A stretch of 36,695 nucleotides of DNA from a virus (IMGVR_UViG_3300043959_000048), one strand, 5' to 3'; counted from the stretch's first letter, positions 2,237-36,695 are shown. Made by a program: numbers and translations. Notes: generated from the sequence alone by a model not told the origin.

Positions 2237-2626
2237 ATGGACATCGCCGAATTGACAAGAGAGCTGGCGCATCGGTCCGACATGGACCTGGACGCGGCAC
2301 GGGAGTTGGCAGATGAATACTTGTCGCAGGCCGAAGCCGTGGATGATCGGAAGATAGACCGATCCGACATCTCCGACGACGATGCGCAGACGGTTTTCAC
2401 CGCGGCAGAAGTCGGTGAGACGCTCGACCCGCAGTCGCCGGCTCTAGGCGAGATCGAGGATATGACCGCCCGCATCGGTGAGCTGACGCATAGGATCGGA
2501 GACATCGCGGACCGTCGCAATGAGCTGATCGTCCGCGCGTATCATCGAGGCACAAGCGTGCCTAGGCTCACATCGGCCAGCGGTCTGAATCGGTCAAGAA
2601 TCTACGCGATCCTCAAAAAAGCATGA
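2237..2626 (+). CDS. Acidic protein with C-terminal helix-turn-helix (about 129 aa); candidate operon autoregulator
   Basis: SD GGGGAGGA at 2221-2228. The ATG at 2237 lies 1 nt after the upstream stop; alternative in-frame ATGs are at 2219 and 2228. The C-terminus RRNELIVRAYHRGTSVPRLTSASGLNRSRIYAILKKA reads as an HTH. Confidence 0.65.
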   Translation: MDIAELTRELAHRSDMDLDAARELADEYLSQAEAVDDRKIDRSDISDDDAQTVFTAAEVGETLDPQSPALGEIEDMTARIGELTHRIGDIADRRNELIVRAYHRGTSVPRLTSASGLNRSRIYAILKKA

Positions 2627-3825
2627 GACGCGGCAAGCCGATCACGCAATACGGGGCGGACGGGAATTTCCTGCGGTCCTTCGACAGTAGGACGGAGGCC
2701 GCGTCATGGCTGAGAGATCATGGTCATCCAAAAGCTAAGGTAGGGGGACTGTCCCGTCTCACCGACGGCATCATCTATGGATTCCGCTGGCGAGATGGAA
2801 GGCATGGCGGGTCAGTGCCGGCCGACGACGGGCATGCGTACAGACGGGTGATTCTGCGTTTCACGGACGGGCACCTCGACGGACGCTTCGACTCGCTGGC
2901 CGATGCGGCCCGCGACCTGGTGGCGCACGGCCACCCAAAAGCGGTGTCCGCGACAATCGGAAACGTCGCACAAGTCCCACTAAGGCGCGCCTTCGGACAC
3001 CAGTGGCGGTATGAGGACGAATGGGACGGGAAAGACCTAGCGACATACGGGCCAAGGAAGCATCGGGCCAGAAACAAAAGCGCGTATGTGCACAAAAAGG
3101 TTGACGCGAGGAAAAAGCCGGTCATAGGCACCGACGCCAAGGGCGTGGTCATGAGCTTCGAGTCGGCTTCCGCTGCGGCAAGACATCTCCGTGGTCACGG
3201 ACATCCAAAAGCGTACTCGCATCGGATCGGCGAAGCGGCGCAAGGGCGCGCGCCCACCGCCTACGGATGGACGTGGCGGTACGGACACGGGGAAAAAGGA
3301 TCATCGACCTCGAATGGCGAGTCAAATTCGCACCTGTGGCTGCAATGGAATCACACGCGGCGCAAATGCCGCTCGCCCAAGGATGCGGCATGGGGGCGTT
3401 ACGGCGGGAGGGGAATCCGCGTGGACCCGACGTGGGAGGACTACATGACCTTCCATGAGTGGAGTCTCGCGCACGGGTACAAGGATGGCCTCACTTTGGA
3501 TCGCAAGGATCGCGACGGCGACTTCACGCCGGACAATGCGATCTGGGTGAAGCCCGGGGAGGGATATACCTACGTCGCGCCCGGTCTGCAAAAAGCAGTG
3601 ATCCAGATCAGCGACGGAGTGGAAGTGAATCGCTATCGGAGCGTCCAGCGGGCCGCCGAATCGCTGATCGCCGCCGGAAGCGGAGCGAAAAGCGGCGACA
3701 GGACCACCACCATGTCCAACATCGTATGCTGTCTCAAGGGGCGCACGAGAAGCGCTTATGGCTTCTACTGGAAATACGTCGCGGAGGACGACATCAAGGC
3801 CGCTGGCGATCCGTCATCACAGTAG
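2623..3825 (+). CDS. Homing-endonuclease-like DNA-binding protein: 4 NUMOD1-like repeats around a His-less HNH_3/AP2-like core (400 aa)
   Basis: ATGA start/stop overlap with the upstream gene. Three repeats carry an invariant HGHPKA and end in G(F/H/W)xWRY (aa 5-57, 74-130, 164-220). A fourth, diverged repeat ends SAYGFYWKY (aa 323-385). The central WGRYGGRGIRVDPTWEDYMTFHEWSLAHGYKDGLTLDRKDRDGDFTPDNAIW resembles the ...LDRIDnnGnYxPxNxxW core of phage HNH_3-type proteins, but the catalytic His position reads LDR. Confidence 0.7.
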   Translation: MRRGKPITQYGADGNFLRSFDSRTEAASWLRDHGHPKAKVGGLSRLTDGIIYGFRWRDGRHGGSVPADDGHAYRRVILRFTDGHLDGRFDSLADAARDLVAHGHPKAVSATIGNVAQVPLRRAFGHQWRYEDEWDGKDLATYGPRKHRARNKSAYVHKKVDARKKPVIGTDAKGVVMSFESASAAARHLRGHGHPKAYSHRIGEAAQGRAPTAYGWTWRYGHGEKGSSTSNGESNSHLWLQWNHTRRKCRSPKDAAWGRYGGRGIRVDPTWEDYMTFHEWSLAHGYKDGLTLDRKDRDGDFTPDNAIWVKPGEGYTYVAPGLQKAVIQISDGVEVNRYRSVQRAAESLIAAGSGAKSGDRTTTMSNIVCCLKGRTRSAYGFYWKYVAEDDIKAAGDPSSQ

Positions 3826-5939: not shown

Positions 5940-6833
5940 TTATTGTCCGTCGTCGTAGACGAGGCCGATCTGCGGGCCGGTGATGTAGCAGGGCGTGGAT
6001 GGGCTGGTGAAATCGTTGAGTGCGCCGGTCGTGTAATACGTTGGTGTGCGGATGTCGATGGTGCCGTCCGCGCGCACGCTCAGCCCGTTGCCGGGTTTTA
6101 CGGTGCCTAATACGGTGGCGGTGGCGGCTTTGGCTTGCGCGGCCGCGTTGGCTGCATCAGCCGCAGCGGTGGCGTCACTGGCTGCGCTCTGCGCCTGAGT
6201 GGTAGCTGCGGTAGCGTTGCTGGTTGCGTCTTGGGCTGCGGATGCTGCGGCATTGGCGGTGCCGGCAGCCGTGTTGGCTGCATCCCTCGCGGTATTGGCT
6301 TGAGTGGCTGCCGTGTTGGCTTGCGTAGCTGCGATGGTGGCGGATGATGCGGCCGTGTTGGCGTTGCTGGCAGCTTCGTTGGCTTGCGTGGTCGCGGTGC
6401 CGATCGCTGCGATGGCTTGTTTGAATTCGGCCAGATCATCAGGCACCTCGCCGGTGGCTTGCAATACGCTTGGCTCGACTAACGCTTCGAAATTGCGGCT
6501 GTCGATGATCATGCCGTTGCGGCTGAGCTCCACGCCAAACGTCACCGCGGCAGTGGCCAGTGCCTGGCGTGGAATGGGTGTGGAGAATGTGAGCGTGTCC
6601 GCGCCTGTCACGGGGCTCATGGTCACGTAGCCGCCCGATGAGCCGGACAGGTCACGATTCCATAATAATCGTGCGCTGATGCCAGTATCGGTCACGGGCA
6701 CGCCATCATCGCTTACGCGCACCCGGAACGAGCGCCCGCTCACGTCCCCGGCGTTTAATCGTACGGGTGGGATCCAGTCCGATGCCGTGTCGAGGCTGAT
6801 GTCAATGGCCCGGTAGTCGTCTAAAACGCTCAT
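5940..6833 (-). CDS. Baseplate upper protein-like tail fibre / receptor-binding protein (BppU-like N-domain, coiled-coil shaft, small C-terminal head)
   Basis: SD GAGGAGAG. The N-terminus RLNAGDVSGRSFRVRVSDDGVPVTDTGISARLLW fits the BppU N-terminal pattern. Aa 149-239 form 13 consecutive Ala/Thr/Asn heptads. It sits downstream of Tal. Confidence 0.75.
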   Translation of the reverse strand: MSVLDDYRAIDISLDTASDWIPPVRLNAGDVSGRSFRVRVSDDGVPVTDTGISARLLWNRDLSGSSGGYVTMSPVTGADTLTFSTPIPRQALATAAVTFGVELSRNGMIIDSRNFEALVEPSVLQATGEVPDDLAEFKQAIAAIGTATTQANEAASNANTAASSATIAATQANTAATQANTARDAANTAAGTANAAASAAQDATSNATAATTQAQSAASDATAAADAANAAAQAKAATATVLGTVKPGNGLSVRADGTIDIRTPTYYTTGALNDFTSPSTPCYITGPQIGLVYDDGQ

Positions 6834-6846
6834 ATTCAGCTCTCCT

Positions 6847-8961
6847 CTAGCTTAGGGGTGTCACGCACGCCCAGTGGCGGTTCGATTCGAATTTCCAGGC
6901 GCCGTTGTTCGCGCAAAACGCTTGCACGCAATGACGCGTTTCCATGTAATAGCTTGTGTATGGCTGCAAGCCGGTGACCAGGAAACTGTTGGAGACGCTC
7001 GAGCCGACGGTCTGCTTCGAATTGTTCTCCCACACGGCGTTCGACACTTTCACCGCGTCGGCCATGTTCTGGTCCTTGATCAGCGTGTTCGACCCATCCG
7101 CGTTGTGCCGCCAGACTTGGAATGAGTATCCGGGCACGGCGATGGTCGTGCCGTTGGTCGAGCCCAACGCCTGGATATATACGCCGATGTACGCGCCAAT
7201 ATCAATGCGCACCGACGTATTCCAGTTCGTTTCGAAAGAGATCCGCACGCACGCATCGTCGTACGGGTCGGGGCTCCATGAGCGATTATACGTACTCGGG
7301 CTGGCTCCACTCGTCCAACTCTGAGCGGCGACCGCGAACAATGGGTCGGTGTTGAATACGCTGCGGCTGATGTCTCGCATCCGGCCCGAGCCAGTGTCCA
7401 ATAAGGTGAATCCGTTGGCGGCGTCGGCGCCCATATGCGCGTATGGCGTCCCGTTTTTGTACGCGGTCACGCCATTGCCGTCCAACCCCACGTAATTATT
7501 CGACGTACTGGAGCGGATGCTGACGTTCGCGGCGTTGATGATCCCCGTGTATAGGGCGTCGGCCACGAGACCATGCCCGTTGCCCAGTGTGCGCCAATCC
7601 CAATCGCCATTGGATTTCCTGCCGTCCGCGATACGCAGGTAGCCGCCGCCCAGTTGGATCGCCATCGTAGGATTCTGATCCTCCGGCCTGTCATACACGT
7701 AAAGCCCCTGCCCGGGCTTGATGTACGTGTATCCGCCGGTCGCGTTCATAATCCCGTTGAGACCGGATATGACGTCGTTGAGATAATCGTTGCCCAATGT
7801 GGCGGCGGAATCCCAGCTGCTCGCATGCCCGGTGAGCTGATCGAGCGCCTGCTGCACGCGCGCCGAACGCTGCGTGTAACTCTGCGTGATATTGCCCAAT
7901 GTGATCTTCGCGTCCGACAGGGGGCCGACCAGATCCTCCTCAAGCTTGAGCACCCGACCCTCTAATCGCAGGGCGGGCGTGAACGTGGTGTCCACGATAT
8001 GCACGCTGTCGCCCACGTCAACCCCGTCCGCGTCCAAGCCCGCCCGGCCGAGCGCGGCCACATCCGCCTCATAGCTCACTACGGGCTTGCTTACTTCAAG
8101 CAGCCGCGCCTTGGTGTGGGCGAGCAGCACACTGGGATCGTCATCATCCGGGAATTCCGCGTCGCCTACGCTTGGGGAGATCGACCCGTCCGGGCCGACC
8201 ATGCCCCAGGCGGCGGTTGCCGCCGCGTCCTCCACATACTTGAGCCCATGGTTGACGCTGCTGAAATCGATTTTGCGACTATAGCCGCCGGTCGCATCCC
8301 CCTCATCATCCGTCTGCTCGATGCCCTTGCCCCACCCGTATAGTCTGGTGATGACGTCTGACGCGTCGACTGTGCGACGGATACCAGTCAAATCACGCCC
8401 GTACTCGAACCGGCGGGTCACGGACGCGGATCCCCGGCGCGCGGGAAGATCCACAATCCTGCGGGCAATAGCGCGCTTATCCGGGGTGAGCGCGATACGC
8501 GTAGACAATTCCAGCCCATACGTGTCAGTGATCGACTGGATCGCCGACAGCACGCTCATGTGATAGAACGCGAGGTCAGCCGTCGGCGTGGATCCGGCCC
8601 CCACCTCGCCCAATGACCACCGGGTGCCCGCCAATGCCTTGGCCAGACAGTCGGCCGGGTATGCGCCGCGATTGCGCACGTCGACAATGTACGCGCGCGA
8701 CAGCTCCGCGATGCTGCCCGAGCAGTATGCGGTAGTCACCGGCATGCCATCCGCGCGCTGCACGTCAACCGACCGCACCACATACTCACACCACCGGCCC
8801 AGCGAGTCGCGGAATACAATGCGATCATCCTTGGCAACCATGGCCCCGGTGACCACGTCCAACGTGTCGGTCGCGTCAGTGGCGCGCGACCGCACCGCGC
8901 TGCGCACATCACCGAGATCCGAAACATAGGATCCCCACCGGTCAAAAAGCATGAAACGCAT
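6847..8961 (-). CDS. Tail-associated protein Tal (prophage tail endopeptidase / minor structural protein family) with C-terminal putative binding domain
   Basis: 704 aa, positioned after tape measure and Dit. The N-terminal two thirds look like siphovirus Tal. SD AAGGGG. Confidence 0.8.
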   Translation of the reverse strand: MRFMLFDRWGSYVSDLGDVRSAVRSRATDATDTLDVVTGAMVAKDDRIVFRDSLGRWCEYVVRSVDVQRADGMPVTTAYCSGSIAELSRAYIVDVRNRGAYPADCLAKALAGTRWSLGEVGAGSTPTADLAFYHMSVLSAIQSITDTYGLELSTRIALTPDKRAIARRIVDLPARRGSASVTRRFEYGRDLTGIRRTVDASDVITRLYGWGKGIEQTDDEGDATGGYSRKIDFSSVNHGLKYVEDAAATAAWGMVGPDGSISPSVGDAEFPDDDDPSVLLAHTKARLLEVSKPVVSYEADVAALGRAGLDADGVDVGDSVHIVDTTFTPALRLEGRVLKLEEDLVGPLSDAKITLGNITQSYTQRSARVQQALDQLTGHASSWDSAATLGNDYLNDVISGLNGIMNATGGYTYIKPGQGLYVYDRPEDQNPTMAIQLGGGYLRIADGRKSNGDWDWRTLGNGHGLVADALYTGIINAANVSIRSSTSNNYVGLDGNGVTAYKNGTPYAHMGADAANGFTLLDTGSGRMRDISRSVFNTDPLFAVAAQSWTSGASPSTYNRSWSPDPYDDACVRISFETNWNTSVRIDIGAYIGVYIQALGSTNGTTIAVPGYSFQVWRHNADGSNTLIKDQNMADAVKVSNAVWENNSKQTVGSSVSNSFLVTGLQPYTSYYMETRHCVQAFCANNGAWKFESNRHWACVTPLS

Positions 8962-8970
8962 GAAAACCCC

Positions 8971-9303
8971 TTAAACGATGTAGCAAATAGAAAAATATAT
9001 CTTCGAGCCCGCGCTCATTGTGATGTCAGCCTGATTTGCAAAACCGACGATCCCATTCGATCCCACATAATATAAATTCCTCGGAGATCCGCCATCGTTA
9101 AATGCCTGCTGAGCCCGCGGCCGGTACTCCACTGGTAATGTATATACCTCTAAATACTGCTTAGAAGCCACATCCACCGGCAGTGGGAATCCATCGAACC
9201 GCAACTGTACAACCGGGCCGAACACATCAACATACACCCCTTCCTGCAATTGCTTCGTCACCGATTTCAAAGGGGGGGGGGGGAGTATTTGCGTACGCGC
9301 CAT
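8971..9303 (-). CDS. Orphan small protein (110 aa) between Dit and Tal; carries a 12-nt poly-C tract at codons 7-11
   Basis: SD AAGGAG with a 6-nt spacer. The protein starts MARTQILPPPPLKS. About 50% G+C by hand count, well below the flanking genes. No family recognised. Confidence 0.65.
   Translation of the reverse strand: MARTQILPPPPLKSVTKQLQEGVYVDVFGPVVQLRFDGFPLPVDVASKQYLEVYTLPVEYRPRAQQAFNDGGSPRNLYYVGSNGIVGFANQADITMSAGSKIYFSICYIV
9272..9283. repeat. Homopolymeric tract G12 (C12 on the coding strand)
   Basis: Counted directly: a + 9 g (9272-9280) + 3 g (9281-9283). It encodes CTC CCC CCC CCC CCT in the 8971-9303 ORF. Confidence 0.95.
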
Positions 9304-9318
9304 AAGAGGCTCCTTACA

Positions 9319-10086
9319 TTAGATCATGGTCTGAGGCTCATAAGAAAGCGAGCCGGAACAATTAGTCAGCGTCAGCTGCGTGGCTTTCGGCACCAGGGGA
9401 AACCAATCGGAATCCAATGTGACCGGCACCACATTGCCGTTCGCGCGAGCCACACGATGAGCGCAATCAAACACCACCAAACCAGTGACCATGGCGCCCG
9501 GCGCATACGTCAAGTGACGTGACCCGCACGACACCGACACACTCGACACCCCGCCAGACGGCGACACCGACAACACCGGCCACGACTCACGATTCCCAGC
9601 CACACGCACCCACTGAGCGCCCGAAACCAAGGGCACAGAGCGACGGCTACCATACAGGTACGGTTGCGCAGTCAACACCACCTGTATGCTGCTCTCTCTT
9701 GGAGCAATCGCATATCGTTTATCTGCCCACGTACCGGTCTTCAGCCTGCCCCGGTATTGGCCAGGAAGACCACGCCACTGGATAGTGGCTTGGCTCCCGT
9801 TAAGTGCGCCAAGACGCATTTTTGCCGATATGAGATCATCTTCTCGACTATTGGCGATAAGCGTCATCGTGATGTCTCTCATGCCCGGATACGCGTTTCC
9901 CTGATCGTCGGTCAGAGACTGATCGACAGCTCCTGCCGACCCCGGAATAGTCACGAGACTAATCGCAGAGTCACTGGCAGCTATCACCAGCCCCTCTGCT
10001 CCCAGTCTCAACATCATGCGTTCGATCGGCATATCATTGATCTTGAGATCCTCGACAAAAGGGATTCGCGTGTACATGTCAAGCAT
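9319..10086 (-). CDS. Distal tail protein Dit (siphovirus tail component family)
   Basis: 255 aa, located immediately downstream of the tape measure gene. Size and position are typical of Dit. Confidence 0.75.
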   Translation of the reverse strand: MLDMYTRIPFVEDLKINDMPIERMMLRLGAEGLVIAASDSAISLVTIPGSAGAVDQSLTDDQGNAYPGMRDITMTLIANSREDDLISAKMRLGALNGSQATIQWRGLPGQYRGRLKTGTWADKRYAIAPRESSIQVVLTAQPYLYGSRRSVPLVSGAQWVRVAGNRESWPVLSVSPSGGVSSVSVSCGSRHLTYAPGAMVTGLVVFDCAHRVARANGNVVPVTLDSDWFPLVPKATQLTLTNCSGSLSYEPQTMI

Positions 10087-10089
10087 GGC

Positions 10090-13000
10090 TCACCTACCAT
10101 TTCTCATTTGTCGTTCCAGCTCGTAGCTCAACGGTTTCGTCAGTTTCCCAGCCATGACCGCGACGCCTTTATCGTTGAGCTCTAATACGATTCCGCGGCG
10201 CATCGCCGAGGCTATAGCGTTGGCAATATTGTTCTCGGTCAGACCAAGTGGAGCAGCAACCGTATTTACCGTCGATATCTGTGTTTTAACCGGCAGATCA
10301 CCGGTACGGTTCATCTGGTCGAGATTCGATATGCCGATTCGTTTCGCCGCCCACGCGCGCACCACGTATTCCTTGTCGCTGAGCATGGTGGGGATACTGT
10401 CAGATGTAGTAGTGCCCGGCCCGGTAACATACCCGTTCGGCCCTCCGTCGGCCAAATGCTGGATTGGGCCGCCGTTCGCACGATGTATGAGACCGCCATT
10501 AGCACTATGGCCGAAATAAGCGGTCATAGAACTTCCGATTCCACTGAAGAAGTTCTTGATATTGCTCCACGCTCCGCCGGCCATTTTCGCGAAGAAATTC
10601 GTCGTATGGCTGCCGGGCACGCTCCCTATGGCATTTCGGGCGCTCCGAACTTCATTGCCTGTCTGGTCAATGGCATGCAGGTGGGCGTTGGGGCTTTCCC
10701 TGCCGAAACTGCGCATGGATGCTACCGCTTGACCGGTTTTGCTCATCGCATCACTGTTGTTAGCCGTGAGCAGTGATTTGACTTCCTTGGGCAGCCGGTC
10801 GTAGTTGATATGCAGGTTGTTAGTGTCGCCGTTCGCCTGGGCGGTGAGAGCTGACATGACGGTCTGCTTCTGTTTCGGCGTCAATCCGAGCGTGTCCAGA
10901 TACGCTTGGACTTGGCCTTTAGTCATATTCGCATTCTCGGTGATCTTGGTGCCCACGTCGCCTGGTATCAGTCCGAGCTTGTCCGCATACTGCTCCGCTC
11001 CTTGCTGGCTCATGCCCATCGACCGCAACGTGTCGATGAGGCTGTCGCGCATCTGCTGCACTTCGTTCTTCGCCGCCTGCGTTGACTGGGCGAGAGTGCC
11101 GTTTGCTTTGCCGTAGGCGAGCTGCTGCTGCACGTTGACCATGAGCGCGTCCGTCGACTGCTGGATCGCCTGACTGCTCGCGTCAGTCAACCCCCTGTTA
11201 TGGGACAGGTCATCGCCATTGGCCTTGAGCGTCGTGGAAAGCTCGGAGAACTTCGACTGCACCATCGAGGATGCCGAATTGACTCCCTGCGCGGTGGTCG
11301 AATAGTCGACCATCGCTCTAATGGTGTCCTTGTACGAGTCGCGCAATCCGTTGACGGTGTCCTTGATGGACTGCATCTTGGCTTTGTATGTGCCGTTGAT
11401 GGTGATACCGCTGCCGGCCGCATCGTTCAACTGCTTCAACGCGCCGGAGTTTCCTTCGACCGCCTGCTGCACGGTGGACAGACTCGTGCCCGTGTCCCTG
11501 ATAAGAGCGGAAAGATTCGAGTCCTTGCCGAAGCTCGAGAGCTTGTCAATGAAACCGAGGTCGCCGGTCTTACCTGCGGACACGCTGCTCCAGAACGCGC
11601 TCGTGCTCTCCGCACCGCCGCGCATCGCCTGGCTGAACGCATCCGTCGTGGCCTTCGACTTCTCCTGCTGGTCGCTCATGGTCGCCAAATACCCTGTGAC
11701 GCCAAGGGCCGCCGCACCGAACATGATGCCTGCAGCGCTGAAACCGCCGACCGAAGATGAAAGCACGCCGGTCTTACCGGCAGCACCAGAAGCCTTGGCC
11801 CCTACCTGCTCGACCTTGCCGGCGGTGTGGCCGAGGCTTCCGGCGGCGGATTCGGCGCTTCCCGCCGTGTTGGACAGGGTGTCGGCCAGTCCGGTCAATG
11901 CCTGCGTCTTCGACAGTCTCTGTGAAATCAGACCGCCGATGGCGCCGGACACCGAGCCGATGCCGCCGGTCACGGTCTTGAGAACGTTGACCACGCCGCT
12001 GATCGGCGTGATGACGCTGCGCATCTGACCACCGAACAACACTGTCGCCGCGATGCCGGTCTGCACCGGCTGAGGCAGACGCTCGAATGTCTTGATGAGA
12101 TCAGCGAGAATCGGCAGCACCGGCCGTACAAGATTCAACGTGGAACTTACCCCGTTGAGTCCGCGGTCGAGCAGGGAGAATCCCGAGTTCGCGCCCGTGA
12201 ACGTCGACTTCACCGGTGAAACCGCGTCGATGACCTGCTTGACGCCGCCACGAATTCCCGAGAACGAGTCGAGCAGACGGTTCATGGTCGCGTCGTCGAT
12301 GTGGAACGCGGTCTGGAACGCCTTGGCGAACTGATGCTTCTCCACCATGCCGCTGACGGAATCCCACGTTTTCGTGAACCATGAGGTGAAACCGGACAGC
12401 TTGTCCGTAGCGAAGTTGATCGCACCGGTCAACTGTGGTTTCAACGCAGTCAGCACACTCTGGCCGAACCCGGTGACGGCGGCCTGCCAGTTGCCGATGG
12501 CCCCCTCGAACGTGCTCGTCGACTGAGCGGCCTGTTTGGCCGCATCAGTCATGCCGAGATCCATGATCGCCTTGTTGAATTCCTCGGCGGTGATCTGACC
12601 TTTGGCCATGGCGTCACGGAAATTGCCGGTGAACGCCTTGTTTTTCTTCATCGCGTCCTGGAGTTTGCCGGACGCCCCGGGGATGGCGTCTGCCATCTGA
12701 TTCCAGTTTTCAGTCGTCAGTTTGCCGGCGCCTGCCGTCTGCGTAAGCACCATGCTCACGCTTTTGAACGTGTCGGCGTTGCCTCCTGCAACAGCATTGA
12801 GGTTTCCTGCCGCTTCTGCCAACTGCCCGTAGCCCTTGACTCCATTGGCAGCGAGCTGAGACGTGGCATTACGGATATCCGCAATGTCATACACGGTCAC
12901 ATCAGCGTAATGCTGAGTGCTTTTGGTGAGCTTCGCGATCGTGCCATTGTCGATGTTGGCGAACGTGAGGGTGGATTTGAACTTGTCCGTGGAATCAGAC

Positions 13001-13707
13001 GCGTCCATCGCGCTTTGGGACATTCCAGAGAACAATCCCATGATGCGTTGCGTAGCCGCTGACGCTATTCCGGCGACTACACCCCATTTGATGCTGAACC
13101 GGTCGAGATTACCGCTAACGGTATCGATCTTCTCGTTGTCAAGACTACGGACACTGTTTTTGATCCGGTCGATCGCTCTCGTGAACAGACTGGTCTTGGG
13201 AGCTTCGACCGTTGCTGTCTTCACATTAGCGACGGCCTGCTTCGCGTTCTTCAACCGCTCCTGCGCTGAGGTGAGCGTCTGACTGGCCGCTTCTTCCCTG
13301 CGCTGGGCGGAAGCGAGCTTCTCTGATGCTGCGATGGCCTGGGATGACCCTGCTCCGTATTTCTCAACGGCCTCATTGAGCTTGGCCTGCGCGACACGCA
13401 CCGCTCCAGCGGCGTCCTGCTGCTTGAGCAGTGCCGAGCTCATGGCCCTCGCTGCCGAAGAGACCTCGCCTTTCAGCTTCGACATGGCCTTCGACCCAAG
13501 ATCACCGGTGGACCCGTCGAACGACGACTTGAGATTCCTGCCCAGATCAGCGCCTGTCTTAGAGCCGACGCCCTTGAATAGGCGGCTGAACAGGCTGGAT
13601 CCCTCGTTCCCCGACCCCTGCACTTCCTTGAGTACAGTGGAGCGGAAGCCTTTCATGTCGGCGAATATGGAGACGTGTGCGGAACCAACTTCTGAGCCGT
13701 TAGCCAT
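10090..13707 (-). CDS. Tape measure protein
   Basis: About 1205 aa, Ala/Gly/Ser-rich and helical, with hydrophobic stretches. It follows the G/G-T chaperone pair. SD AGGAGA lies 6 nt before ATG 13707; the ORF track starts at TTG 13713. Confidence 0.9.
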   Translation of the reverse strand: MANGSEVGSAHVSIFADMKGFRSTVLKEVQGSGNEGSSLFSRLFKGVGSKTGADLGRNLKSSFDGSTGDLGSKAMSKLKGEVSSAARAMSSALLKQQDAAGAVRVAQAKLNEAVEKYGAGSSQAIAASEKLASAQRREEAASQTLTSAQERLKNAKQAVANVKTATVEAPKTSLFTRAIDRIKNSVRSLDNEKIDTVSGNLDRFSIKWGVVAGIASAATQRIMGLFSGMSQSAMDASDSTDKFKSTLTFANIDNGTIAKLTKSTQHYADVTVYDIADIRNATSQLAANGVKGYGQLAEAAGNLNAVAGGNADTFKSVSMVLTQTAGAGKLTTENWNQMADAIPGASGKLQDAMKKNKAFTGNFRDAMAKGQITAEEFNKAIMDLGMTDAAKQAAQSTSTFEGAIGNWQAAVTGFGQSVLTALKPQLTGAINFATDKLSGFTSWFTKTWDSVSGMVEKHQFAKAFQTAFHIDDATMNRLLDSFSGIRGGVKQVIDAVSPVKSTFTGANSGFSLLDRGLNGVSSTLNLVRPVLPILADLIKTFERLPQPVQTGIAATVLFGGQMRSVITPISGVVNVLKTVTGGIGSVSGAIGGLISQRLSKTQALTGLADTLSNTAGSAESAAGSLGHTAGKVEQVGAKASGAAGKTGVLSSSVGGFSAAGIMFGAAALGVTGYLATMSDQQEKSKATTDAFSQAMRGGAESTSAFWSSVSAGKTGDLGFIDKLSSFGKDSNLSALIRDTGTSLSTVQQAVEGNSGALKQLNDAAGSGITINGTYKAKMQSIKDTVNGLRDSYKDTIRAMVDYSTTAQGVNSASSMVQSKFSELSTTLKANGDDLSHNRGLTDASSQAIQQSTDALMVNVQQQLAYGKANGTLAQSTQAAKNEVQQMRDSLIDTLRSMGMSQQGAEQYADKLGLIPGDVGTKITENANMTKGQVQAYLDTLGLTPKQKQTVMSALTAQANGDTNNLHINYDRLPKEVKSLLTANNSDAMSKTGQAVASMRSFGRESPNAHLHAIDQTGNEVRSARNAIGSVPGSHTTNFFAKMAGGAWSNIKNFFSGIGSSMTAYFGHSANGGLIHRANGGPIQHLADGGPNGYVTGPGTTTSDSIPTMLSDKEYVVRAWAAKRIGISNLDQMNRTGDLPVKTQISTVNTVAAPLGLTENNIANAIASAMRRGIVLELNDKGVAVMAGKLTKPLSYELERQMRNGR

Positions 13708-13709
13708 TG

Positions 13710-14422
13710 TCAATCTCCTATTCTCATTTCGCTCATGGCAGCTATGCCAGCACTGGTCATTTCCTCATTCGATGGCGTATCGTCTGCCAGATGATAGGGG
13801 AGCAGTTGCTCAGGTAATCCCGCACGCAATAGACGCAGATAATCAGGCCATGCGATCGGATAATCGAAATTATTATGTTTCGCGCCGGTCATAGTCCCGG
13901 TATCGGACAGGAGCGACGCGTGCAATGCGATCGCATCCGCATAGCGGAGCCTGCCACCAACGTCACCCGACAGGCTCCATCCCAATCGGGCGAAATCCGC
14001 CGCGACCTCGATACGATCCGGGGTTACTTCGACCCAGAAGGCTCGTATTTTCCCAGTGACGCCAACTGCACGTTCTCGACCACGTCAGCATATTTGCTGG
14101 CGAGCGCGAGCAGTACTACGGATGGCTCCGATTCGATGGCTTGCATCATGGTTTTCGTGCCCAGGTTTTCTTTTTCGAGCAGGTGCTTGATCTGGTCGAG
14201 CGGGGTGAGTGTGTCATCCTGTCCGTCGAAATATTGTGCGGTCAGGTCGAGCGGTAGGCGGTATGTGTGCCCGGTGTAGGTGCGGATGTACATGTTCGGG
14301 TATTTGACGATGTACCGGTTCTGGACTTGCTCTCCGGCGGTGATGATGTCTTGTTCGAGCGTGCCGTCGTTGGCGTGTTCGAAATCGAGGTTTGTTGGGA
14401 TTCCAATATTTTTCGTAGTCAT
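13710..14422 (-). CDS. Tail assembly chaperone G-T fusion via -1 programmed ribosomal frameshift (predicted 237 aa)
   Basis: The 0 frame reads CTG GGA AAA. After a -1 slip the frame GGG AAA ATA ... stays open through the 13710-13985 ORF to the TGA at 13710-13712 (checked by hand). Confidence 0.7.
14024..14422 (-). CDS. Tail assembly chaperone, 0-frame product (gpG-like, 132 aa)
   Basis: Lies between the major tail and tape measure genes. It contains the slippery heptamer near its 3' end. Confidence 0.8.
   Translation of the reverse strand: MTTKNIGIPTNLDFEHANDGTLEQDIITAGEQVQNRYIVKYPNMYIRTYTGHTYRLPLDLTAQYFDGQDDTLTPLDQIKHLLEKENLGTKTMMQAIESEPSVVLLALASKYADVVENVQLASLGKYEPSGSK
14048..14054 (-). 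promoter_or_regulatory. -1 frameshift slippery heptamer G_GGA_AAA
   Basis: The plus strand reads ttttccc at 14048-14054. It is in the correct X_XXY_YYZ phase relative to the gpG frame. Confidence 0.7.
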
Positions 14423-29248: not shown

Positions 29249-30139
29249 CTAGAATTCGGGCTCGTCCTCGCTGCCCGAGTGCGCCATCGGATTTGCCGCG
29301 TCCGTGATCGCGAGCACCTGCTGCAGTGTCGTGCCGAGCAGGCCCGCGATCTCCTGCGGGGCTTTTCCGGCCGCTTTGAGCTGGAGCACCTGCTGCTGGT
29401 TGACCGCCATAGGCTGCGGTTGCGCCACCTGCGGCTGCTGGACTGGCTGCTGGATAGGCTGCTGCGCGGTAGCACTCCATCCGCCGAAAGGACTCTGCGG
29501 CGGCTGCTGCTGTTGGGGATTGGGCTGGCTGTAGTCAGACTGCTGCACTGGCTGGTAATAACCCTGCTGCGGCTGCGCAACAGCCTGCTGGACTGGCTGC
29601 TGCGGGTTGACCAGCGCACTCACGCCATTCGCCGGGACGATCCTGTACTCATACACCTTGGGAGCCTGCGGAGCATTGCCACGCTCGCCCAATCCGGAGA
29701 ATGTTGCGGTCATCGTGTCACCGTTTTTCGGAGGATTGCCGCCCGCCTGCTTGCACGCCTCGCGGAACGCCTTCAATTGGATTCCCCAGCCCTTGATCCA
29801 CAGGCTGCGCCGGCCATCGTCATCATCCACGCTTGGGTCTCTGAGCGTGGTCTGCAGGACGATGTGGATCTGCATCTGGGGACGTCCGTCATTCCAGAAC
29901 GCGGGCTGTTTGGATTGGAAATCATGCGCTTGAACGGTCTCGACGAGGTCTACGACGCCGGTGACGCTGGCTCCTATCTGGCTGTCGGCATTGAAGAACG
30001 CTTTCGCGCCGCTGCCCGACAGGAGGTCATCGATGCTGCTGAGCTTCGCCGCCGGCGCCTGCTGCGGCTGCTGACCATACCCGTACTGCTGAGGCTGGTA
30101 ATTGTTGTTGTATCCGTTGTTGTTGGGTCCTGCGAACAT
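29249..30139 (-). CDS. Q/N/P-rich protein with acidic ...SEDEPEF C-terminus; candidate ssDNA-binding or annealing protein
   Basis: 296 aa. The SD AAGGAAAGAG is followed by A8. The N-terminus is prion-like (NNNGYNNNYQPQQYGYGQQPQQ), followed by a central globular ~130 aa and a long Q/P linker. The terminal acidic tip ending in F resembles the SSB DDDIPF tip. It sits between the exonuclease and the origin. Confidence 0.4.
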   Translation of the reverse strand: MFAGPNNNGYNNNYQPQQYGYGQQPQQAPAAKLSSIDDLLSGSGAKAFFNADSQIGASVTGVVDLVETVQAHDFQSKQPAFWNDGRPQMQIHIVLQTTLRDPSVDDDDGRRSLWIKGWGIQLKAFREACKQAGGNPPKNGDTMTATFSGLGERGNAPQAPKVYEYRIVPANGVSALVNPQQPVQQAVAQPQQGYYQPVQQSDYSQPNPQQQQPPQSPFGGWSATAQQPIQQPVQQPQVAQPQPMAVNQQQVLQLKAAGKAPQEIAGLLGTTLQQVLAITDAANPMAHSGSEDEPEF

Positions 30140-30163
30140 AATTTTTTTTCTCTTTCCTTGTTG

Positions 30164-31069
30164 TTACTTGGTTGTTGGCTGGTATGTGGGTTCGAGCAGC
30201 GGGATCAGAGCCCGCCACTTGTCGGGCACCGCGGGAAAATTCTCGTTGGTGAGGTCGCTGAGCGCGCCATCGTCGGGCCACGTGTGATCCGAGAAATCGT
30301 GGGTGGGTGATTCCGGCAGCAAATGGATCCACGCATCGCGCATATCTGCTCCGTCCGCCTGTTCGATCACGTCCATGAAGTTGACGAGCAGCTGAGCCCT
30401 GGCGAGCGCCCACTGGCCTGGTTTGGGATCCCAGTCCTGCTCCCACGGGATGGCGTCGTTGAGGCTGATGCCGTTTCGTGGAAGGAAGTAGATCGCGGAT
30501 CGTTCGATCGGATCGTCCATGTTCTGTAGGCCGAGTCCGTAAAGACTGGCCTGCACTGCGTATTGCTGGCTGATGCCATGCGCTTTCACGTTGCGTAGCG
30601 TGGTCGATCCTACGATTTTCCAGTCGACGGTGGTGGCGGTCTGCCGGTCATACAAATCGATGTGCCCGCCGATCTTGTATCCGCCGTACAAGCCGTTGAG
30701 CTGGCCGCTGGTGACGGCTTTCTCGGTTTCGAATCGCGTGTTATCGTGGTCGGGGTCGAATCCTGTCTTGTTGAGCGTGGGGAACAGTTTTTCGAATTGG
30801 GCATGCACGGCGGTGCCGATATAGGGCAGCCATGCTGCTTGCTGTCCTTGCTGCGGCCATCCGGCTAGCTTGGCGGCCAGCGTGTGCAGGCTGTCGGTGC
30901 CGAGTTCGCTGGGACCGATTTCGACTTGCTGGCTTCTAGGCTGGTTGCGGATTGCGGTTTCGATGATCGTGCGGATCTCCGGCCACAATTGCGGTTGATC
31001 ATCTTCGACTGGCGTCAGCGTCGCTTGTATTGTTGTCGGCTGTGGCATGCTGATGATCTGCGCGCTCAC
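30164..31069 (-). CDS. PD-(D/E)XK family exonuclease (RecB/Cas4-like recombination nuclease)
   Basis: Motifs GHIDLYD...TVDWKIVG (D...D-x-K) and QQYAVQASLY (QxxxY). Start taken at GTG 31069 (GTGA coupling, SD AAGGAG 7 nt upstream). ATG 31087 and ATG 31048 are alternatives. Confidence 0.7.
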   Translation of the reverse strand: MSAQIISMPQPTTIQATLTPVEDDQPQLWPEIRTIIETAIRNQPRSQQVEIGPSELGTDSLHTLAAKLAGWPQQGQQAAWLPYIGTAVHAQFEKLFPTLNKTGFDPDHDNTRFETEKAVTSGQLNGLYGGYKIGGHIDLYDRQTATTVDWKIVGSTTLRNVKAHGISQQYAVQASLYGLGLQNMDDPIERSAIYFLPRNGISLNDAIPWEQDWDPKPGQWALARAQLLVNFMDVIEQADGADMRDAWIHLLPESPTHDFSDHTWPDDGALSDLTNENFPAVPDKWRALIPLLEPTYQPTTK

Positions 31070-31224
31070 GGGCGTTCTCCTTCCCATATCTCATCCGCTG
31101 CCTCATGGCAGAGCTGATCGAGTTCCTCGCTGCGGATGATGAACAGGTCGTCGGTGATGTTGAGATCGTGTCTGAAGATCGCGTGGCTGATAGCCTGGCT
31201 GATCTCATTGTTTGTCTGCTTCAT
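31066..31224 (-). CDS. Small ORF (52 aa), below the ORF-track cutoff
   Basis: Hand translation: MKQTNNEISQAISHAIFRHDLNITDDLFIIRSEELDQLCHEAADEIWEGERP. It has an ATGA overlap upstream and a GTGA overlap downstream, and fills an otherwise empty 130-nt gap. Confidence 0.5.
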   Translation of the reverse strand: MKQTNNEISQAISHAIFRHDLNITDDLFIIRSEELDQLCHEAADEIWEGERP

Positions 31225-35379: not shown

Positions 35380-36573
35380 ATGACCAATCCAATAATCCCA
35401 CAGCAACCAGCGCCGCAAGGCCCCGAAGAAATCCAGCCCCATTACTCCGCCTACCCACAACAAGGACAGCAGCAACATGCGACTCCGCCCACGCCAATAC
35501 CACCAATAGACCCGAATCAGCCCCACCGCCGCGATCTCCGCCAGACAAACAAAGGTACAAGCGGACTCGCCATTACCGCCCTAGTAATCGGAATTATCAG
35601 TATCGTGCTTTCCTGGGTTCCGATAATCAACAATTTCGCTGCTTTCCTAGCTTTGGTCGGCATAATATTCGGAATCATAGGAATCACCAGAACCGGTCAC
35701 AGAAGCAAGAAAAAAGGTCGCGGGATAGCAATAGCTGGAACCGTGCTGTCTGTAATAGCCATCATCGTCACACTTATCACCCAATCTGCCTATGGGAAAG
35801 CCTTAGACAAGGTGACAAACACTGGTTCGACGCCAAAAGCAAGCTCAGCTACAATCAAGAAGGACAACCTTGCTGCATGTAAGACTCTTCTGGGCGATGA
35901 TATGAAAATCGTCACAGGCATCCCGGATCTGATCACCGGGATAGGGGACAATGCCACAACAAAGCAACAGGATCAACTCGAGAAAACGCATCTGAAAATC
36001 GAGGATGCGCGCAAACAAGCTGAAAGCGGTCTCGCAGGCCATCTCGCCTCTCTCGATACCCCGTTTAAACAAGCATATGACGTCATGCACGGCGGCGGCG
36101 GATCGATCGATATGGATACATCGCATGTGGAAAACGACATAACCAACGTCATGAATGACTGTGCTGATGCAGGATATAAAATCGCCGATACGAACACGGA
36201 CGAATCCTCCGACTCCTCTGTGGACGAGAAGCCTCTGGCAAGCGTTTCAGGTGGCAAATATGCCGGCAAAGATAACACAGGATTCGGCAGTGGAACATTC
36301 ACGGTTCGCAATGACAGCGACAAGCCGCTGAAATCGGTGTCGCTGACTGTTTCGGAACTGGACGCATCGGGCAATATCCTGCAGGAGACGTATCCGCAGC
36401 TCGATAGCGATCTGCAGCCAGGGCAAAGCGCGAATCTCGAATACCTGCTCAGCCCCGACGATCTCACGAAAACGCGTTCCGTGCAGGTCACGAAGCTCTC
36501 GTGGATGCTCGACGATAACGGGGACGGATTCCAGGAGGTAAGCGTTTCCTCCGACCCGGTGCAAGTGAAATGA
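35380..36573 (+). CDS. Membrane protein: Pro/Gln-rich N-terminus, DUF4190-like TM hairpin plus third TM, large extracytoplasmic domain ending in an Ig-like (DUF4352-like) module; candidate superinfection-exclusion / lysogenic-conversion factor
   Basis: SD GGGGAG. TM segments are GLAITALVIGIISIVLSWVPII, FAAFLALVGIIFGIIGI and IAIAGTVLSVIAIIVTLI. The C-terminus reads FTVRNDSDKPLKSVSLTVSELDASGNILQ. It is the last gene before attR, co-oriented with the repressor, and visibly more A/T-rich than the structural genes. Confidence 0.75.
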   Translation: MTNPIIPQQPAPQGPEEIQPHYSAYPQQGQQQHATPPTPIPPIDPNQPHRRDLRQTNKGTSGLAITALVIGIISIVLSWVPIINNFAAFLALVGIIFGIIGITRTGHRSKKKGRGIAIAGTVLSVIAIIVTLITQSAYGKALDKVTNTGSTPKASSATIKKDNLAACKTLLGDDMKIVTGIPDLITGIGDNATTKQQDQLEKTHLKIEDARKQAESGLAGHLASLDTPFKQAYDVMHGGGGSIDMDTSHVENDITNVMNDCADAGYKIADTNTDESSDSSVDEKPLASVSGGKYAGKDNTGFGSGTFTVRNDSDKPLKSVSLTVSELDASGNILQETYPQLDSDLQPGQSANLEYLLSPDDLTKTRSVQVTKLSWMLDDNGDGFQEVSVSSDPVQVK

Positions 36574-36665: not shown

Positions 36666-36695
36666 CCCGCCCTGTCCGCAATAAGGGTTCCCGGC
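36666..36695. repeat. attR core (direct repeat)
   Basis: Identical to 1-30. Lies directly after the last prophage gene and an arm region with repeated GTGTGGTG motifs. Confidence 0.85.

Follow-up and report, generated by a model that had tools for sequence, protein, structure and literature searches.

A C12 tract in ORF110, an accessory gene between Dit and Tal of a probable Bifidobacterium phage, as a candidate phase-variable switch

Can a single run of cytosines decide whether a phage makes one of its tail-module proteins? The question is raised by a locus in the viral sequence IMGVR_UViG_3300043959_000048, analyzed here as one stretch of 36,695 nucleotides (the window). In this window, a 110-codon open reading frame (ORF) without known family, termed ORF110 (8971-9303, minus strand, ATG at 9303), is a lineage-specific insert between the genes of the distal tail protein Dit and of the tail-associated lysin, or tail tip protein, Tal. 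Its codons 7-11 (CTC CCC CCC CCC CCT, encoding LPPPP) contain an uninterrupted run of 12 C, the putative slippage switch, at 9272-9283 (9283-9272 in the coding direction, minus strand; G12 on the plus strand). The initial annotation of this locus proposed a phase-variable baseplate component. The C12 tract is real and non-random. Mainly by analogy with known systems, we put the probability that it switches ORF110 ON and OFF through replication slippage at roughly 0.55, while it is doubtful that such a switch would constitute adaptive host-range bet-hedging.

The C12 tract and its reading frame

On the minus strand, the TAA stop codon of Dit is followed by TGT, the Shine-Dalgarno (SD) motif AAGGAG of ORF110 (9309-9314, minus strand), the 6-nt spacer CCTCTT, and ATG. 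The codons GCG CGT ACG CAA ATA then lead into CTC CCC CCC CCC CCT, after which the frame continues with TTG AAA. The sequence and the family matches agree with the initial annotation, which had described this SD, its 6-nt spacer, and a 110-codon ORF between Dit and Tal. The consequences of length change were simulated in silico for tracts of 8 to 16 nt. Lengths of 9, 12, and 15 yield the full-length ORF110, lengths of 8, 11, and 14 bring a TGA directly 3' of the tract (peptides of 10-12 amino acids), and lengths of 10, 13, and 16 lead to a stop after 24-26 codons. The sequence and this simulation confirm that the run of 12 C in codons 7-11 keeps the ORF open, as well as the earlier hand check of its neighbors (11 C giving a TGA right after the tract, 13 C a later TGA). 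With the tract at the 5' end of the gene, the simulated OFF products are only 10-26 amino acids long.

Such a run is not expected from composition. No other homopolymer in the window exceeds 8 nt, the next longest being a T8 and two runs of 7, and a first-order Markov model predicts 2.4e-3 G/C runs of at least 12 nt in the whole window. In ~160 kb of DNA from related phages, G/C runs of at least 8 nt are confined to the ORF110 alleles. Codon usage does not account for it either: PPP is absent from the 22 other genes, CCC-CCC is not used for any of the 14 PP pairs, and, CCC making up 31% of the proline codons, an LPPPP peptide would be encoded by this very run with a probability of ~0.004. Simple sequence repeats are regarded as contingency loci when, for homopolymers, they reach ~7-9 nt or longer within a reading frame or a promoter. 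The tract shows three of the features of such a locus, being intragenic and uninterrupted, changing the frame with each single-base gain or loss, and occurring above the expectation from composition and codon usage.

Two other uses of the tract region were considered and rejected. A programmed frameshift or a dual-coding gene does not fit, because both alternative frames close within 0-14 codons of the tract. Initiation at an internal start 3' of the tract does not fit either: the only candidate, GTG27, is not kept (GTT in the second allele described below), and the upstream AAGGAG and ATG are conserved.

An acquired gene with two alleles

Judged from its sequence, ORF110 is a genuine coding gene and an acquired insert. 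Between its two alleles, the ratio of nonsynonymous to synonymous divergence (dN/dS) is 0.44 in the annotated frame, vs. 0.98 and 1.30 in the alternative frames, which argues that the gene is translated and under constraint. In all 12 of the related Dit-Tal junctions compared (from Gardnerella, L004; from IMG/VR, L007-L016; and from Bifidobacterium phage Bbif-1), the Tal start follows the Dit stop within ~1-12 nt, with no gene between them; this absence indicates that ORF110 is accessory and, in principle, dispensable. Several of these junctions read TAA-AGGAG-(5-6 nt)-ATG of Tal. By its position, the SD that drives Tal in the relatives serves ORF110 in the window, and Tal has a new one, AAGGGG (8967-8972, minus strand), which overlaps the ORF110 stop codon.

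Composition tells the same story. The GC content of ORF110 is 49.5% (47.5% without the tract), within the lowest 2.7% (1.4%) of equal-sized segments, and the GC content at third codon positions (GC3) is 0.55, vs. 0.61-0.77 in the neighbors. The earlier view of an acquired insert is, thus, upheld by the 12 related junctions and by GC3. As for the low GC relative to the flanks, the estimate of ~50% for the ORF was right, but the flanks lie at 56-62% (Dit 56.2%, Tal 61.6%) and not at 68-72% as had been stated, so that the contrast is real yet smaller.

The spacers on both sides are tight, 15 nt between Dit and ORF110 and 9 nt between ORF110 and Tal. No promoter-like site flanks ORF110, and no terminator-like site occurs within 6500-10500. 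Together, these features argue for expression within the late tail operon rather than as a free-standing moron. The moron class, which is defined by an own promoter and terminator, was considered and set aside, neither element having been found; the deviant GC is moron-like nonetheless. Repeats on either side of the gene, as expected of a mobile insertion, were looked for, and only short, chance-like matches emerged; no paralogue of ORF110 exists in this genome or in its relatives.

A side observation concerns the frames of the three genes. Dit, ORF110, and Tal all share one frame (8961-10086): the TAA of Dit is separated by 15 nt from the ATG of ORF110, and the TAA of ORF110 by 9 nt from the start of Tal; the chance of this is ~1 in 9. 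Stop codon readthrough would yield Dit-ORF110 or ORF110-Tal fusions, and nothing supports such fusions.

ORF110 is a rare gene. Word-indexed searches, with the single sequence and with a two-allele profile, and phmmer were applied to a sample of 5.8 billion clusters and 1.84 billion representatives, and only two alleles were found in it. Comparison with GenBank phages by tblastn gave no match, and neither exact 27-mer searches nor profile-based locus searches of IMG/VR and the JGI metagenomes gave a further copy. As the 90% clusters of Dit and of Tal comprise two members each, they offer no unbiased sample of tract lengths. The allele of the window recurs in L005, with C12, and in L001, where it is cut at the contig end. 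The second allele, P0002, encodes 109 amino acids with 74% protein identity to the first and is carried by two Logan contigs, L002 and L003. Both of these read CTC CCC CCC CCC TTG, a C10 tract encoding LPPPL, in frame. Homologues encoding the prolines with mixed codons, which the initial annotation had named as evidence against a switch, were not seen, the sole diverged homologue having a pure C10 run. Some of the assemblies fail at this place, two of six, which are independent metagenome assemblies, breaking at or next to the tract: L001 starts with CCCCCCTTTG (positions 1-10), and L006 (4784-4796) ends 7 nt before the first C. Such breaks fit length heterogeneity and Illumina failure on G-tracts alike, without separating them.

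The two alleles do not differ evenly along their length. The neighboring Dit and Tal genes show 95-96% DNA identity to L002 over the ~3 kb shared, with a dS of 0.16 and a dN of 0.013 for Tal. The N-terminal part of ORF110 (9163-9303, minus strand; codons 1-47, tract included), a putative docking half, is similarly conserved, with 92.8% nucleotide identity, a dN of 0.039, and a dS of 0.19. The C-terminal part (8971-9162, minus strand; codons 48-110), putatively the ligand-facing half, is hypervariable, with 68.2% nucleotide identity, a dS of 0.77, and a dN of 0.35. The several-fold higher synonymous divergence of the C-terminal half points to recombinational replacement by a diverged allele, and not to mutation in place. 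Phage proteins that dock on the virion and face a variable partner usually combine a conserved N-terminal half with a swapped C-terminal one; this layout is the best argument for a role in host interaction, although an indirect one.

A diversity-generating retroelement was also considered as a source of this variability. The 36.7-kb genome holds neither a template repeat nor a second copy of the variable region, which argues against such an element, and no reverse transcriptase was found among the ~18 larger ORFs scanned, which are a part of the ORF set; such an element is, on this basis, improbable.

Replication slippage and the competing explanations

If the tract is a switch, the following sequence of events may be proposed. 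ORF110 would have been acquired by one lineage of temperate Bifidobacteriaceae siphophages, inserted exactly at the Dit/Tal junction. Slipped-strand mispairing, whether the DNA is replicated as a prophage or in the lytic cycle, would add or remove one C and shift the frame into a TGA after 10-26 codons (OFF), and a further slip would restore it (ON). A lysogen or phage population would, hence, be a mixture of genomes that make and do not make the 110-amino-acid protein, with Tal, which has its own SD, still made in both states. The protein itself would be a dispensable accessory of the tail tip or baseplate, anchored by its N-terminus to conserved parts of the phage and turned with its C-terminus towards a variable partner, such as the host surface or a host defence. 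A useful slippage rate, the presence of the protein in virions, and an adaptive ON/OFF mixture are all predictions of this scheme. In the OFF state, ~300 nt upstream of Tal would be untranslated, and the RNA there (30% G, 18% C) is a poor Rho entry site. Given this G-rich, C-poor RNA and the SD of Tal, little polarity is to be expected, and the switch would probably act on ORF110 alone.

The strongest outside support for the slippage mechanism, given by analogy, comes from the probable host genus. G9-G13 tracts lying within pilus genes of Bifidobacterium, near their 5' ends, have been proven by experiment to act as ON/OFF slippage switches (Penno et al. 2022, PMC9187656). In a single-colony culture subjected to maximum-depth sequencing, the annotated G11 tract of bbr_0113 was found as ~37% G11 and 60% G12, and the length ratios of Bifidobacterium G-tracts changed in mice (PMC9187656). 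The ORF110 tract resembles these in type and length (G9-G13 there, C10 and C12 here), in its intragenic position near the 5' end, in its frame logic, and in the probable host family with its replication and repair machinery; both genes would also encode surface-interaction structures, which for ORF110 is only a prediction. If the phage is replicated by the same machinery, its 12-nt run should be at least as unstable in the prophage. The pilus switch, on the other hand, concerns a gene of the host chromosome whose annotated state is OFF, which slippage brings into the ON state, and which exerts polarity on the operon downstream, whereas ORF110 is a phage gene whose consensus is ON and whose downstream gene has its own SD. 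With this precedent, the reading of the tract as a phase-variable switch is plausible and mechanistically well founded.

Phages also offer precedents. Hypermutable polyG tracts in genes of Campylobacter Fletchervirus phages reportedly generate, through slippage, phenotypically mixed phage populations, with a link to host recognition or to the evasion of resistance (described by Sorensen et al. in 2021). These phages are said to be lytic myoviruses infecting a Gram-negative host and to have several tracts in each genome, and their switching is reported as experimentally proven. An intragenic G/C homopolymer is common to both cases; here, a single tract is found, in an ORFan between Dit and Tal of a temperate actinobacterial siphophage, and it is known from sequence alone. 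The contingency loci of T2 and T4 (agt, rIIA) undergo reversible frameshifts at short homopolymers in non-essential genes, for which bet-hedging was proposed; their tracts are of ~6 bases or more, in lytic coliphages, and serve the evasion of host defence (Gomez, Barrick and Waters 2025, bioRxiv, PMC12633550). ORF110 shares with them the logic of a homopolymer frameshift in a non-essential phage gene, its reversibility being a prediction. It differs in having a much longer tract, and one that lies inside a tail module, in a class of genes where, as in infection genes, coliphage repeats of at least 6 bases are under-represented (PMC12633550).

Several observations weigh against switching, or against its use at the tail tip. 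The tract-spanning assemblies (the window, L005, L002, and L003) are in the ON frame in four cases out of four and represent only two lineages, and the protein collection holds no OFF variant. The purity of the tract across the alleles is not significant (~5 synonymous sites, dS 0.19, P ~0.4), and because the step from C12TTT to C10TT is the loss of one CCT codon, the alleles are no proof of single-base slippage. The host genus, on which the analogy leans, is itself deduced from sequence. Ribosomal +1 slippage on CCC-C codons could make the OFF states leaky. Finally, neither homology nor a structural model supports membership in a baseplate or tail-tip structural family, for which position alone argues. 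Part of this evidence is what would be expected if the tract were a slippage by-product in a tolerant N-terminal tail, with OFF variants as neutral or mildly deleterious noise purged by selection for the ON frame, and with no bet-hedging at all. All spanning assemblies being in frame agrees with this, as do the statistically non-significant purity over the observed divergence, the single proline codon by which the alleles differ (PPPP vs. PPP), like in-frame drift in a tolerant linker, and the scarcity of repeats in coliphage tail genes mentioned above. Nevertheless, one synonymous change would suffice to end an instability that is costly; even so, the runs of both alleles (10 and 12) are pure. 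The location of the tract, at the very 5' end of a gene that is accessory, dispensable, and quick to evolve, is also typical of contingency loci, and no other such run exists in this genome or in ~160 kb of relatives. On balance, a mere by-product is a minority prospect, although the most serious of the alternatives.

The peptide, and not the DNA, could also be what matters. Ribosome stalling at polyproline stretches and its relief by elongation factor P (EF-P) are well established, and the LPPPPL at residues 7-12, with prolines kept in both alleles, could act as an EF-P-dependent throttle in the tail operon. This would leave unexplained why the codons form a perfect homopolymer (CTC, then only CCC or CCT; P ~0.004 by codon usage). 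In addition, the number of prolines differs between the alleles, and no significant RNA structure (z = 0.0) or other regulatory feature was found around the tract. As the main explanation for the tract, a throttle is quite improbable, and it would be compatible with slippage switching rather than exclusive of it. Most improbable of all is that a sequencing or assembly artefact created the run, or gave it the length seen. The window was assembled from a metagenome, and L001 and L006 are cut off at or beside the tract; G/C homopolymers are error-prone on Illumina, where the 'G's end' problem on G-tracts was described, and annotated lengths can be wrong (PMC9187656). However, at least three other assemblies, which stem from different runs and a different assembler, contain the tract as well (C12 in L005, C10 in L002 and L003), and each recovered length is compatible with an open frame of 110 or 109 codons on which coding constraint acts.

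A separate question is what the protein does. BppA of the lactococcal phage Tuc2009 is a small, dispensable, lineage-specific addition to a Dit/Tal-based adsorption device, and is thought to add carbohydrate binding. It is encoded downstream of Tal, together with BppU and BppL, rather than between Dit and Tal, and is not phase-variable. ORF110 is, likewise, a small lineage-specific addition at Dit/Tal that is dispensable in principle, with a tail-tip role that is predicted; to our knowledge, it has no sequence or fold similarity to BppA. No significant match of ORF110 was found in Pfam, PHROG, NCBIfam, PADLOC, or the PDB, and no homology to any receptor-binding protein was detected, although the gene sits in the tail-tip module. 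Two AlphaFold2 (AF2) runs gave all-beta models with a predicted local distance difference test (pLDDT) score of only 37 and 38. The designation as a baseplate component made in the initial annotation, thus, finds no family or structural match to sustain it. Weak similarities do exist. The C-terminal 58 residues align end-to-end with the C-terminus of phrog_9468 (E 0.017) and also with that of a minor-tail PHROG (E 0.4). In the phmmer search of the 1.84 billion representatives, a 14-residue motif, GGSPRNLYYVGSNG, resembled the blade repeat of a lectin-like propeller protein (the repeat protein P0003), which itself weakly matches a fungal fucose lectin propeller. These matches are hints and not evidence of function.

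The tract might, hence, switch a protein that never reaches the virion: a late protein of the cytoplasm, for example one that counters host defences or assists assembly, whose gene happens to lie among the tail genes. Small size, low GC, ORFan status, and rapid replacement of the C-terminal half are equally typical of anti-defence genes, none of the structural families shows homology to ORF110, and the supposed partners Dit and Tal are nearly invariant between the alleles. The exact position between Dit and Tal, the tight spacing, and the use of the SD that drives Tal in the relatives speak for a tail protein instead, as do the predicted all-beta fold, the weak C-terminal alignments to phrog_9468 and to the minor-tail PHROG, and the lack of a PADLOC match. 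A cytoplasmic role is, on these grounds, considered unlikely; this estimate concerns function, is orthogonal to mechanism, and is not additive with those given for the other alternatives.

A more specific version of the slippage switch can be imagined, although we hold it to be improbable. Sortase-dependent pili of the host, which are candidate receptors toggled by G-tracts, would be mirrored by a C-tract-toggled, add-on adhesin at the phage tail tip. Each induced burst would release both adhesin-bearing and adhesin-free virions, suited to piliated and non-piliated subpopulations of the host, and the swapped C-terminus would track receptor variants. If true, an adsorption accessory subject to phase variation would be seen for the first time in an actinobacterial phage, here that of a gut commensal.

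The novelty of such a switch, suggested by the initial annotation for actinobacterial phages, has to be qualified. In a limited literature, no described case of a homopolymer-switched gene in an actinobacterial phage was found, and the main bifidoprophage paper contains no mention of homopolymer tracts, slippage, or frameshift. Hypermutable phage tracts as such are, however, already known from Fletchervirus and T2/T4, and for Bifidobacterium itself, G-tract switches have been proven. Little is understood of the phages of this genus, few of which have been propagated. If ORF110 is really a tail-tip accessory switched by a homopolymer, lysogen populations would hold a ready-made mixture of phage phenotypes, and a genome sequence alone would mis-predict virion composition and host range. 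The variation devices known from phages of this group, such as the Rin shufflon of dnaJ2-integrated bifidoprophages (PMC6109161), would then be joined by a second, cheaper one, mirroring the pilus switch of the host. Such tracts also break short-read assemblies (two of six here), so that functional genes may look like pseudogenes, or the reverse.

Genome, probable host, and neighboring genes

The window, a whole JGI metagenome contig, begins and ends with an exact 30-nt terminal direct repeat (1-30 and 36666-36695), which indicates a circular assembly; its ~36,665 bp are, hence, the complete genome of a phage rather than a prophage flanked by host DNA. In its capsid, the phage is similar to actinobacteriophages. 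Tal shares 52% identity with that of Bifidobacterium phage Bbif-1, 50% with that of a prophage of Gardnerella, a member of the Bifidobacteriaceae, and 57-59% with high-GC IMG/VR contigs. From these relatives and the contig GC of 57.9%, the host is most likely a Bifidobacterium. No Rfam family was found in the window.

The genes around ORF110 form the block of tape measure protein, Dit, Tal, and fibre that had been annotated previously, and the Pfam and PHROG matches agree with it. The tape measure protein gene lies at 10090-13713. Dit (9319-10086, minus strand), upstream of ORF110, matches PF22768 (SPP1_Dit) and phrog_33, and Tal (6847-8961, minus strand), downstream, matches PF06605 (Prophage_tail), phrog_12312, and phrog_19445. 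Relatives of Tal match only residues 1 to ~480. The last ~225 residues (~479-704; window 6847-7527) are lineage-specific and 95% conserved between the lineages carrying the two ORF110 alleles. Downstream of Tal lie a fibre-like protein gene (5940-6833) and also the endolysin gene. The former, on the minus strand, adjoins the 3' end of Tal and encodes 297 amino acids, with an N-terminus weakly matching neck-passage PHROGs and a long, low-complexity stretch rich in Ala, Thr, and Asn (AANTAA-like); its product is likely a fibre or receptor-binding protein.

Some other features of the genome can be mentioned. The integrase gene (218-1573) is preceded by a G7 run (205-211), the second-longest G/C run in the genome, which occupies the SD position 6 nt upstream of the ATG at 218; a change in its length would alter the strength and spacing of the integrase SD. 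The T8 run (30142-30149) lies inside the 24-nt gap between the ORFs 29249-30139 and 30164-31087 (minus strand). Between the integrase and endolysin genes, on the strand opposite to the structural genes, a 400-amino-acid ORF (2623-3825, plus strand) shows NUMOD1 and I-HmuI-like domains and matches HNH-endonuclease PHROGs; it probably encodes a homing endonuclease. Close to the other end, a 397-amino-acid DUF4190 membrane-type protein is encoded at 35380-36573 (plus strand), in a low-GC patch (35473-36209) that is among the lowest-GC stretches of the genome; this gene is possibly expressed in lysogeny, as a moron or a superinfection-exclusion type gene.

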